Positions 24,479-27,316 of a DNA stretch of 37,561 nucleotides are shown piece by piece. The position numbers were made by a program, and so were the translations under genes. This stretch comes from an uncultured archaeon (lineage in GTDB: Archaea > Altiarchaeota > Altiarchaeia > IMC4 > SCGC-AAA252-I15). The first letter of the stretch is position 1. Every line of letters begins with the position of its first letter. The stretch spans positions 1 to 37,561 of the forward strand of contig CABMCB010000047.1 of assembly GCA_902384455.1 (NCBI GenBank). Reading direction: 5' to 3'. The notes beneath the pieces were generated by a model. The model was not told where the DNA came from. It worked only from the letters and a program-made list of their open reading frames with translations, and ran no database searches.

Positions 24479-25579
24479 GTGGTCGGAAAGAAAGCGTTTG
24501 CAGTGTTTCTGGTTTTGTTTCTTCTTTTGCAAACGGTTGCCGCCAATCCGTTCTCAGATTTAATCTCTATGATTGAGTCCATGATTAAGGGATTATTCTC
24601 TGCGGCGCAGGGATTTACTAAAACATCAGACTCCAGTTCAGAACCCAAAACGACCACGACTACAATCCCAATTACGGCAACGCATTCGACGACAACCCTA
24701 CTCCCGTCAATTACTACGACAACAACGACACTAGAAACAACCACAACTTCCATTTCCACAATAGCATGCCCTAAAGACTGCAGCAGCCACGGCTCATGCG
24801 ACGAAAAAACAGGGGTATGCCTGTGCGTAACCGGATACAGCGGCATAGACTGCTCAATCTCCTCTACCGGAGGCGGCTGCGTCAACAAGACGCTGGAAGA
24901 AACATGCAAGAAACCCAACATGTACTGCAGCCTAGAAAAATGCGTCTGCAACGCCAATTACGCCAACTGCAACATGATTACCGCAGACGGATGCGAAACA
25001 AACACCTTAACAGACACAAACAACTGCGGCACATGCGGCCTAGCATGTATATCCACCACCGGAAGCATGAGCGCTTGCGTAGCCGGCAAATGCGTAACAA
25101 CCAAGAAACCCAACGGAGAAACATGCGCCGCAGACAAAGACTGCGCAAGCGGCAACTGCCTGCCAGCGCAAACAGGCAAACGATGCGCATCAAAAACAAG
25201 CTGCTGGCCATGCCAAGTCATAAACACCACGGGAACTGAATGCGTAGATGCGACCGCGGGAACAGACCCAAAAAAAGAATGTGACGCCGAAGACGAATCA
25301 ACATGCGGCAAAAACGGACAATGCGACGGCCGCGGAAACTGTCAGATGTATCCCTCAGGCGTCGTCTGCTCTGACGGCAGCTGCAGCAACAACAGGTACA
25401 ATTTTCCGGGAACGTGCAATGGCGAGGGAAAGTGCGTCAGCAGCAGAACTGAAAACTGCAACGACGGCAACCCCTGCACGGAAGACAGTTGCTCGTCGTC
25501 CGGGTGCGTCAACTTGCCTTTGGCGGACGAAACTCCCTGCGGGTCGCAAAGACGCTGCCGAGACGGAGACTGCGTCTGA
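24479..25579 (+). CDS. Secreted Cys-rich protein with Thr-rich stalk, EGF-like and myxobacterial/Dictyostelium-type repeats
   Basis: Signal peptide, Thr tract. CPKDCSSHGSCD..TGVCLCVTGYSGIDCS (EGF), GCETN..TD.NNCG.CG, CNDGNPCTEDSC. Confidence 0.75.
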   Translation: MVGKKAFAVFLVLFLLLQTVAANPFSDLISMIESMIKGLFSAAQGFTKTSDSSSEPKTTTTTIPITATHSTTTLLPSITTTTTTLETTTTSISTIACPKDCSSHGSCDEKTGVCLCVTGYSGIDCSISSTGGGCVNKTLEETCKKPNMYCSLEKCVCNANYANCNMITADGCETNTLTDTNNCGTCGLACISTTGSMSACVAGKCVTTKKPNGETCAADKDCASGNCLPAQTGKRCASKTSCWPCQVINTTGTECVDATAGTDPKKECDAEDESTCGKNGQCDGRGNCQMYPSGVVCSDGSCSNNRYNFPGTCNGEGKCVSSRTENCNDGNPCTEDSCSSSGCVNLPLADETPCGSQRRCRDGDCV

Positions 25580-25870: not shown

Positions 25871-26143
25871 CTATTGCCCCTTTAATCTCCTTTTGTTCCA
25901 CACAGTCTTGCCGTTTCTGCGTATTTCGCGTATTCTGTGCATGGGAATCAACGCTTCTGGTTCGCCTCCTTTTAATGCAAAGAAGTCGCCTTTGATTATG
26001 ACGTTGGTGTACTGTATTTCCTTGGGCACGTCAAGGTCGAGGTAGAGTATGGAGTACTCGGCGGGTTTGAGGCTTGAGTCGTAGCGTATTCTGTTTAGTG
26101 CGTCCTTCTCCAATGCTTCTTTGAGGGGTTTCTCTTTTTTCAT
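25871..26143 (-). CDS. MJ1316 / DUF504 (UPF0248) RNA cyclic-end recognition domain protein
   Basis: LNRIRYD, Y.I.YLD, IPMHRIREIRRNGKTVW.KR. Confidence 0.85.
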   Translation of the reverse strand: MKKEKPLKEALEKDALNRIRYDSSLKPAEYSILYLDLDVPKEIQYTNVIIKGDFFALKGGEPEALIPMHRIREIRRNGKTVWNKRRLKGQ

Positions 26144-26170
26144 CCAACTATTTTTTTGTTAACCGGCAGG

Positions 26171-26178
26171 TATTTATA
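26171..26178. promoter_or_regulatory. Bidirectional TATA box (TATTTATA / TATAAATA)
   Basis: 27 nt from the MJ1316 ATG on - and about 25 nt from the start of the structured RNA on +. Confidence 0.6.
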
Positions 26179-26203
26179 CTTTGTTGTAGTACAAGGTAAT
26201 GTA

Positions 26204-26394
26204 TAGGGTGTGGGGTGATCGGGTAACGCATCAAGAGCATCTTCCGGAGGAACTTTGGGGAACCTCCAGCCCGTCCTGCGGGATATCCTGAAAAGGTGGG
26301 AGATGAAAACAAGTCCATCTCAGCTTCGTCCGAGGTGGTGGGTCATGATGCGTACTTCCCTCCCGGGGAGTGGCTTCGCGCCTGCCCGACCCTA
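26204..26394 (+). ncRNA. Unidentified highly structured RNA (~190 nt)
   Basis: Closing stem TAGGGT/ACCCTA plus CGGGTA/TGCCCG. 8-bp ACGCATCA/TGATGCGT. Hairpins GGAGG/CCTCC, CCCG/CGGG, CCT-GAAA-AGG, GAGATG/CATCTC, GCTTC/GAGGT, ACTTCCC/GGGGAGT, GGC/GCC. Upstream TATA box. Confidence 0.6.
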
Positions 26395-26407
26395 AAACAC
26401 CGAATTC

Positions 26408-27316
26408 TCACTTCAAGAGACTCTGAAGGTACAGTACCATATAGCGCGTTTCGCCTTCGTCTTTTGCCTTCTTCTTGAATCCATGTTTGCGCGCCAGACG
26501 GTCGATAATCTGGTTGCTTCCGCTTCCGTACTGAGCCGCCTTCTTCCTCCTGTTGAGGATGTTCTCTGGCACATTGTAGCGCTCGGCAAGAAGGCGGAAT
26601 ACGTACTTGCGGATGAATCGGCGGCCGTTTATTTCGTCTACGCACGCGTAGGGTGGTTCTTGGTTGGGTTGTATTTCCCTTAGTTTGTAGTCTGCTGGTA
26701 GTGATGATGCGTATTGCAGGAATTTTTGTGTGACGTAGGGGAACTTTAGGTTTACTCCTGCGGCTTGTGTTACTGCGATGTCGTATTTTAACTGCGCGTC
26801 GTGCAGATTTTGTACGTCCAAGTCAAGTGCCTCTTCAAGGGCGTGCCATCCTTGGTTTGCGGCAATGGAGAGGTAGCGGTCGTATCCTCCGAAAAGTTCG
26901 TCTGGTCCTTGGCCGCATAATACTGTCTCAATGTTTTTTTGTGCGAGCGTTTCGCTTGCTAAGTAGAATGGGATTGCGACCGCTGTTTTCAGGGGGTTGG
27001 CTTCGCCTATGGCGTGAAGTATTACTGGGAGGGCTTCTTCGACGTCTTCTTCGGTTATTTTTTTGTATTCCACTACGAAGGGGAGTTTTGGTTCGGCTTC
27101 TTTGGCGTGCTGCGCATCGACGCTTCCTTCGGCGCCAATATTGACTGCGTGCACTTTGGCGTACTTGCTTGCCACATACCCAAGCACTGTGCTGTCTAAT
27201 CCTGCGGAGTAAATAAGGCCGACCTCCTTTTCTCCTTCTACTGCGGCAGATACTGCTTCTTCAAGTAGCTCCTGCAGGTGGTCTACTACTGATGTGAGGG
27301 TTTTGTCTTCCGTCAT
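26408..27316 (-). CDS. Asparagine synthase C-terminal (PP-loop ATP pyrophosphatase) domain protein lacking the glutaminase domain
   Basis: YSAGLDST, VLCGQGPDELFGGY, RKYVFR, RRKKAAQYGSG. No N-terminal CGI Ntn domain. ATG at 27316. Confidence 0.85.
   Translation of the reverse strand: MTEDKTLTSVVDHLQELLEEAVSAAVEGEKEVGLIYSAGLDSTVLGYVASKYAKVHAVNIGAEGSVDAQHAKEAEPKLPFVVEYKKITEEDVEEALPVILHAIGEANPLKTAVAIPFYLASETLAQKNIETVLCGQGPDELFGGYDRYLSIAANQGWHALEEALDLDVQNLHDAQLKYDIAVTQAAGVNLKFPYVTQKFLQYASSLPADYKLREIQPNQEPPYACVDEINGRRFIRKYVFRLLAERYNVPENILNRRKKAAQYGSGSNQIIDRLARKHGFKKKAKDEGETRYMVLYLQSLLK

Follow-up and report, generated by a model that had tools for sequence, protein, structure and literature searches.

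We analyzed a contig of 37,561 nucleotides (nt) from an uncultured archaeon of the phylum Altiarchaeota (CABMCB010000047.1 of assembly GCA_902384455.1; this whole stretch is hereafter called the window) and found that positions 26198–26401 of its plus strand encode, with high confidence, a highly structured non-coding RNA (ncRNA) that is specific to the altiarchaeal lineage. The assignment of the gene and its fold rests on comparative evidence, namely homologues and covariation, because the single-sequence z-score is insufficient alone. The base of the RNA forms a canonical bulge-helix-bulge (BHB), consisting of a 3-nt bulge, a 4-bp helix, and a second 3-nt bulge, in all 24 genomic copies and in the six complete metagenome copies. 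In the explanation that we favor, and which as a whole we regard as probable, the product of this structured RNA gene would be excised by EndA, closed into a circle by RtcB, and locked by a loop–loop contact. The gene is contained in a 264-nt gap (26144–26407) between two minus-strand genes. The element is single copy in its 2.41-Mb source genome (G000, 91.9% complete; contig C47), with one match at E values up to 0.001 and likewise one with covariance models.

Homologues were recovered with covariance models of increasing depth. A model seeded with only the window sequence and the helices of an earlier reading made without database searches (the sequence-only reading), gave one full-length match in another genus (22.9 bits), and BLASTN with this first homologue yielded two further matches at 82% identity. 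A four-sequence model matched 17 of the 49 genomes of the order, and a 19-sequence model matched 20 of the 61 genomes of the class, which corresponds to the whole phylum, with full-length matches down to E = 1e-65. The RNA occurred in three of the nine families of the phylum, namely f1 (16/20 genomes), f3 (2/2), and f4 (1/1), with none in f5 (0/22), f2, f6, and f7 (0/1 each), f8 (0/4), and f9 (0/8). Many of the surveyed genomes are incomplete, and a match not found in these does not equal absence. Some genomes carried two copies, and genus g5 has head-to-tail pairs. BLASTN of the window element against 40 relatives returned nothing below E = 0.01, and four short BLASTN matches (L011, L018, L021, and L039) proved to be noise when scored with the covariance model with filters off.

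Pattern scans of metagenome contigs added six complete copies and one partial copy. The scans returned 52 loci in genome contigs and 39 in metagenome contigs, mostly chance matches or unrelated bacterial ones. Covariance scoring, which left out 43 genome-contig loci with bacterial titles, passed all nine archaeal-titled genome-contig loci and 6 of the 39 metagenome loci. The contigs with family members were titled Candidatus Altiarchaeota or Altiarchaeales, and their scores equaled those of genomes of the same family. Among the loci excluded from scoring by title were about 16 from Azospirillum, in which degenerate pattern matches fell on one conserved spot, each match being about 199 nt long; this spot is probably a conserved G+C-rich gene.

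Covariation was counted mainly on a model-fitted alignment of 24 copies. In this alignment, 83.6% of the cells paired compared with 70.5% after shuffling, and none of 500 shuffles reached the observed value. Both sides had changed in 50 of the 64 pairs, against 32.9 expected. When the partners were slid by 1–3 columns, 37–43% of the cells paired, and the covariation score was 0.411 compared with at most 0.105. Because a model-fitted alignment leans towards the structure, we repeated the count on a structure-blind MAFFT alignment of 19 copies. Here, 78.1% of the cells paired compared with 70.8% after shuffling and at most 45.5% in the slid controls, and the covariation score was 0.329 against at most 0.135. 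The sequence-only reading had named relatives and covariation as its check, and the phylum supplied both, full-length homologues and strong covariation.

Ten helices covaried, arranged in two four-way junctions and one three-way junction (Table 1). The consensus begins with the closing helix P1, followed by P2, which meets P3, P9, and P10 in a four-way junction. P3 leads into a three-way junction with P4 and P8, and a second four-way junction, closed by P4, holds P5, P6, and P7. The outer part of P1, designated P1a, paired in 92.7% of the cells and covaried. In window coordinates, all eleven helices pair fully, and the consensus structure has a free energy of -79.3 kcal/mol compared with a minimum free energy (MFE) of -84.3.

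This consensus agrees with the sequence-only reading in seven helices. All base pairs listed in that reading are present in the sequence. Its helix 26220-25/26383-88 was lengthened in the family alignment to 26219-25/26383-89 (P2), and its 8-bp helix 26226-33/26346-53 (P3), its hairpins 26354-71 (P9) and 26372-82 (P10), and its outer four-way junction were all recovered. Of the five hairpins placed inside P3, those at 26246-50/26263-67 (P5), 26270-73/26279-82 (P6), and 26287-96 (P7, with a GAAA loop) were retained, whereas 26300-05/26316-21 and 26323-27/26332-36 gave way to the covarying helices 26238-45/26298-305 (P4) and 26315-21/26332-38 (P8). The terminal stem had been set at 26204-09/26389-94; the conserved register is instead 26207-11/26397-401 plus 26212-15/26390-93 with two 3-nt bulges, and the BHB motif had been missed. 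The ends given there (about 26203 and 26395) roughly match the primary fold, except that the helix extends to 26401.

A canonical BHB is defined in PMC7714728 as a four-base helix flanked by two three-base bulges. In the new RNA, the central helix measures exactly 4 bp (26212-15/26390-93) with standard pairs in every one of the 24 genomic and six metagenome copies, each central-helix strand is followed on its 3′ side by a 3-nt bulge, which places the two bulges on opposite strands, and the flanking helices h (P1a) and h′ (P2) both covary. The 5′ strand of the central helix is GGGG apart from AGGG in two of the 24 copies and GGAG in one, and the 3′ strand is CCCU apart from CCCC in four copies and CUCC in one. 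The GGAG copy faces CUCC, a compensated change, and the central helix pairs in 100% of the cells. Both splicing enzymes are encoded in the genome: EndA (PF01974 at C71:38338-38598, 102.6 bits, in a 218-aa frame) and RtcB (PF01139 at C11:46361-47647, 591.9 bits).

As a calibration of the cut sites and their polarity, we used two intron-bearing tRNAs of the same genome. In tRNA-Met (C74:9338-9519, plus strand), which has a 108-nt intron, the anticodon stem on the 5′ strand runs straight into a 4-bp helix with the bulge 3′ of it, and the 3′ strand mirrors this order. The same BHB arrangement was found in a second tRNA (C53:24155-24258, minus strand); ARAGORN labels it tRNA-Thr, and from its long variable arm and BHB geometry we assign it to tRNA-Ser(UGA) with a canonical 18-nt intron at 37/38. 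Both control tRNAs obtain a proper anticodon loop only if they are cut after the second bulge base. The new RNA is arranged likewise: P1a corresponds to the exon helix and P2 to the intron helix. Because this geometry matches the tRNA controls and both EndA and RtcB are encoded, we infer, on good grounds and with good probability, that the RNA is excised at its BHB by cuts at 26217/26218 and 26395/26396, and that the 178 nt released in this way are circularized. The genome also encodes a tRNA-Arg with a 155-nt intron (C71:49678-49907, minus strand); the introns of tRNA-Arg and tRNA-Met are long enough to hold other RNAs.

In the proposed pathway, P1a, the 4-bp GGGG/CCCU helix with its two 3-nt bulges, and P2 would form the canonical BHB in the primary transcript. 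EndA would cleave after the second base of either bulge, and RtcB would ligate the ends of the released segment 26218–26395 into a 178-nt circle. The loop of P5 is UAUAGGG in most copies and is complementary to CCCUAUA, which consists of the 3′ strand of the central helix and the bulge. In the window, both sides have changed, the loop being UUUGGGG and its target CCCUAAA. Among the 23 copies with a P5 region, at least five contiguous loop pairs were possible in 14, at least six in 8, and seven in 5, with a mean of 4.96 compared with 3.77 for shuffled targets. In the precursor, the P5 loop and the 5′ GGGG would compete for the same CCCU. Loss of the 5′ GGGG would free CCCUAA, which together with the A of bulge 1 would form a 7-nt loop capping P2, and this freed loop could pair with the P5 loop UUUGGGG and thereby lock the fold. 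We regard the loop–loop lock as a plausible, if rather doubtful, candidate for a tertiary contact.

Several observations weigh against this pathway, in part by suiting a linear RNA equally well. The RNA might be a linear structured ncRNA, in which P1 and the bulges serve as a closing stem or a protein-binding site, and which is perhaps trimmed and never cut by EndA or circularized. The evidence from family, fold, and promoter applies equally to such an RNA, and BHB-like patterns are frequent by chance: a strict BHB pattern had 1682 matches in the 2.4-Mb genome at spacings up to 300 nt. The case for excision therefore rests on conservation of the motif rather than on its single occurrence, and something other than cleavage might keep GGGG/CCCU invariant. 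In 9 of the 23 copies, loop pairing is poor or missing, and in one copy (G012b, with bulge AUG and loop CAUAGG) the loop fits the uncut tail better than the junction of the circle. As for the fold, P3 pairs in only 61.7% of the cells in the register of the model, and the alignment behind the 83.6% figure was fitted to the structure. The linear RNA is nevertheless hard to reconcile with an exact 3-4-3 arrangement in 24 of 24 diverged copies and six metagenome copies, which would hardly be expected without selection where the sequences of P1a and P2 change freely. Tandem copies behind one promoter also require some excision step, and in an RNA that stays linear the CCCU would be contested by both the P5 loop and the 5′ GGGG. 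We consider the linear RNA unlikely, and prefer excision at the BHB with circularization.

The genes on either side of the RNA gene, both on the minus strand, encode a 90-aa MJ1316-domain protein (PF04457; ATG at 26143) upstream and a 311-aa asparagine-synthase-like PP-loop protein on the other side. The RNA gene is independent of its neighboring genes; an archaeal promoter of its own precedes it, and in most relatives an oligo-T terminator follows. On inspection, most copies other than second tandem copies had a B recognition element (BRE)/TATA sequence such as CGAwAAGyTTTATAT about 26–33 nt upstream of P1, with no clear TATA box in G006, G009, and G027. An oligo-T run of four to eight T lies downstream of P1 on the plus strand in most copies; that of the window is poor as a terminator. 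The promoter proposed in the sequence-only reading was borne out, since a TATA box is present at 26172-79 and, second tandem copies aside, most copies have a TATA sequence ahead of the first helix. Transcription is predicted to start at about 26198–26203. About 30 nt separate the TATA box of the window from the start codon of the divergent MJ1316-domain gene. The box probably serves this gene too and may mainly be a property of it, which would weaken the promoter as an argument for the RNA gene in the window; the MJ1316-domain gene is probably leaderless and would have a bidirectional promoter region in common with the RNA gene. MJ1316 is annotated as a domain recognizing RNA cyclic-phosphate ends, which we take to be the kind of end left by EndA. 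The adjacency of an MJ1316-domain gene and the RNA gene was seen only in this genome. The PP-loop gene was present in 37 of 41 genomes, with an MJ1316-like gene within 1.5 kb in none of the 29 loci of relatives checked, and a protein-seeded scan of metagenome contigs recovered no relative.

Second tandem copies start 4–17 nt after the first and have no promoter. Head-to-tail pairs behind a single promoter were found at L094 (G013 C4:55886-56325), L087 (G004 C14:32857-33293), L101 (G018 C78:4436-4861), and L198 (metagenome). The second copy scored below the first in G004, G018, and the metagenome contig, and the two copies of G013 scored alike. Promoterless second copies thus imply a precursor that needs cleavage.

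It is improbable that the RNA belongs to a known class that is too diverged or circularly permuted for the Rfam models. A BHB-flanked gene could encode a permuted RNA, and PMC4731332 provides a precedent in the SRP (signal recognition particle) RNA of Thermoproteus. However, a search of the whole window with Rfam 15, which includes RNase P, SRP, 5S, tRNA, C/D, H/ACA, riboswitch, and ribozyme models, gave no match at the gathering threshold. At E values up to 10, the region had only a junk match to a long non-coding RNA model (E = 2.1) and no match to an rRNA model. In the tandem copies, the permuted order occurs naturally, although the P1 flanks break it up, and these loci gave nothing relevant in the same search. 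SRP RNA (153.6 bits), archaeal RNase P RNA (71.6 bits), and 5S rRNA (77.4 bits) are all encoded on other contigs, so that these identities were rejected, and ARAGORN found no tRNA in the window. The sequence-only reading had likewise failed to match the RNA to any of the known classes that it considered. As a C/D-box RNA, the element was rejected by inspection: CUGA is paired within P2, GUGAUG is part of P4, and no C/D pair able to form a kink-turn was seen. A strict BHB was not found in the flanks of the SRP RNA and 5S rRNA genes, and two matches in RNase P flanks were AU/GU-rich and look like chance.

Three RNase P RNAs were noted in this genome. The archaeal-type RNA (G000 C2:1-561, L002, at 273-561) scores 71.6 bits, short of its gathering score of 84. 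It shares its strand with the 23S rRNA and begins about 127 nt beyond the 3′ end of that rRNA, which suggests that it is co-transcribed with the rRNA operon. Two more RNase P RNAs, at C38:~25222-25559 (L004 1490-1827, minus strand) and C59:~51264-51553 (L003 1493-1782, minus strand), scored best as bacterial class A RF00010 (95 and 79.8 bits, respectively, with a gathering score of 100). They lie in same-strand tRNA arrays, with at least 10 tRNAs on L004 and seven plus a sub-threshold tRNA-Sec on L003. These cassettes of tRNA arrays and RNase P look as if they came from a mobile element, a virus, or a foreign contig.

A role as a cis-regulatory leader, riboswitch, or 3′ untranslated region (UTR) element of a neighboring gene is very improbable. 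The gene order DUF211–DUF357–RNA–Ssb-like OB–phosphoenolpyruvate (PEP) synthase is common to three genera, and in these the RNA lies 59–110 nt upstream of the same-strand Ssb-like OB-fold gene, as a leader might. However, the RNA is followed by a T-run, and a separate TATA box stands before the OB-fold gene; a search with filters off of 11 loci around OB-fold orthologues, that of G000 among them, recovered no copy of the RNA. Both neighbors in the window are on the opposite strand, and contexts vary between genera: in g8, the flanks are a CTP synthase, identified by reading its translation, and an unassigned conserved open reading frame (ORF), and one genome has the RNA pair in inverted orientation with its neighbors unchanged. 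The family does not hold the fixed same-strand position upstream of a regulated gene that a riboswitch or leader would have. None of the neighbors (DUF357, DUF211, Ssb-like OB fold, and PEP synthase) hinted at a function for the RNA, and our best guess at its role is a stable, exonuclease-resistant scaffold for a protein partner.

Folding energies alone did not distinguish the element. The plus strand has an MFE of -79.4 kcal/mol (z = -2.09), and 8 of 200 shuffles folded as stably, so the z-score alone is not above chance; the minus strand is weaker (-67.6 kcal/mol, z = -1.18), in keeping with the preference for the plus strand expressed in the sequence-only reading. The modest z-score might suggest that a G+C-rich spacer folds by chance here, or that the element is a decayed gene or a mobile repeat. 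These readings are refuted by the single copy, the homologues to E = 1e-65, the strong covariation, and, in close relatives, the conservation beyond that of the flanking coding sequence. The many dispersed copies expected of a miniature inverted-repeat transposable element (MITE), which the sequence-only reading had named as grounds for abandoning its proposal, were not found in the genome.

Conservation among close relatives was assessed on Logan DNA contigs of about 150 nt and low depth from two metagenome runs, as supporting evidence only. The first run showed no difference over 26215–26408 and 10 differences over 94 nt at 26409–26502 in the PP-loop gene. The second run showed three differences over 137 nt at 26190–26326, of which two were among those listed, both in hairpin loops, and 18 differences over 105 nt of the MJ1316-domain gene. 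In these close relatives, the RNA stretch is better conserved than the flanking coding sequence.

We compared the RNA with known systems. The nearest precedent is the permuted SRP RNA of Thermoproteus, which is restored by circularization (PMC4731332). Both are standalone structured ncRNA genes whose functional form arises, by prediction in our case, through the tRNA-splicing endonuclease and end joining; in contrast to that permuted gene of a universal family, the new RNA has no known family, its helices are collinear, and its genome has a normal SRP RNA. The BHB-flanked circular RNAs listed for Haloferax comprise two tRNA introns, four rRNA circles, and one 5′ UTR (PMC7714728). In circular pre-16S and pre-23S rRNA (PMC7714728, PMC12558985), a long flanking helix with a 3-4-3 BHB releases a whole functional RNA that is then circularized, as predicted here; the new RNA, however, is about 178 nt, non-ribosomal, and has its own promoter. 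Archaeal tRNA introns, including the tRNA-Trp intron that encodes a C/D box small RNA (PMC12558985), share the BHB geometry and, by prediction, the cut positions and show that an excised piece can function, whereas the flanks of the new RNA are no recognizable RNA and would form a hairpin of about 40 nt if ligated. Bacterial raiA and OLE resemble it in their many covarying helices, invariant junction bases, own transcription units, and unassigned functions; unlike these, the new RNA is archaeal, confined to part of one small phylum, and BHB-flanked.

Searches of the main texts of papers for Altiarchaeota together with ncRNA, RNase P, or splicing endonuclease yielded no description of the RNA. 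Within these searches, a standalone gene for a new structured RNA class with canonical BHB flanks appears to be undescribed. The absence of an Rfam family, the single copy, the varied gene contexts, the own promoters and terminators, and the strong covariation support the proposal of the sequence-only reading that this is a previously undescribed standalone archaeal ncRNA, transcribed from the plus strand under its own promoter. Large structured RNA classes newly found in archaea are rare, and the covariation here is as strong as is usual for ribozymes and riboswitches, yet nothing curated matches. The conserved BHB base predicts an additional dedicated substrate of the tRNA-splicing endonuclease and RtcB besides tRNA, rRNA, and a few odd cases, and also predicts that circularization is part of building the fold and not a by-product. 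It is quite possible, and we propose tentatively, that Altiarchaeota have a dedicated gene for a circular, kissing-loop-locked RNA matured by the tRNA-splicing machinery, which would be the first standalone archaeal ncRNA class to reach its functional fold only after BHB excision removes a strand of the processing helix, and which could represent a new ribozyme or the core of a ribonucleoprotein. Since Altiarchaeota are uncultured subsurface archaea, a defined RNA that looks abundant and has sharp predicted junctions offers a concrete target for metatranscriptomics and in vitro work.

Table 1. Coordinates of the RNA gene features in the window.
Feature	Positions	Strand	Remarks
TATA box TATTTATA	26172–26179	+	From sequence; BRE/TATA upstream in family
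GGTAATG, initiator-like (family: GTAATAC)	26196–26202	+	About nine copies have it 5–17 nt ahead of P1, by inspection
P1a 5′ strand GGUGU (BHB outer helix h)	26207–26211	+	Pairs with 26397–26401; 4–9 bp in family; 3/4 modeled pairs change on both sides
Central helix H 5′ strand GGGG	26212–26215	+	Pairs with CCCU 26390–26393; 4/4 standard pairs in 24/24 copies
BHB bulge 1 UGA	26216–26218	+	Exactly 3 nt in 24/24; third base A in 23/24; predicted EndA cut 26217/26218
Predicted excised circular mature RNA, 178 nt	26218–26395	+	Inferred from BHB geometry and presence of EndA and RtcB
P2 5′ strand UCGGGUA (BHB inner helix h′)	26219–26225	+	Pairs with 26383–26389; 93.5% of cells; 6/7 pairs change on both sides
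P3 5′ strand	26226–26233	+	Pairs with 26346–26353; length variable in family
P4 5′ strand CAUCUUCC	26238–26245	+	Pairs with 26298–26305 GGGAGAUG; closes inner four-way junction; 8/8 pairs change on both sides; 85% of cells
P5 hairpin (26246-50/26263-67)	26246–26267	+	Loop 26254–26260 UUUGGGG complementary to 26390–26396 CCCUAAA
P6 hairpin	26270–26282	+	88.5% of cells pair; 6/6 pairs change on both sides
P7 hairpin, GAAA loop	26287–26296	+	90.9% of cells pair
P8 hairpin (26315-21/26332-38)	26315–26338	+	90.5% of cells pair
P9 hairpin	26354–26371	+	Family alignment
P10 hairpin	26372–26382	+	Family alignment
P2 3′ strand UGCCCGA	26383–26389	+	Family alignment
Central helix H 3′ strand CCCU	26390–26393	+	Family alignment
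BHB bulge 2 AAA	26394–26396	+	Exactly 3 nt in 24/24; predicted EndA cut 26395/26396
P1a 3′ strand ACACC	26397–26401	+	Family alignment, window check

Elsewhere in the window, the plus strand at 24479–25579 contains a 366-aa ORF with a signal-like N-terminus, threonine-rich linkers, and many regularly spaced cysteines, whose product looks like a secreted or surface protein.

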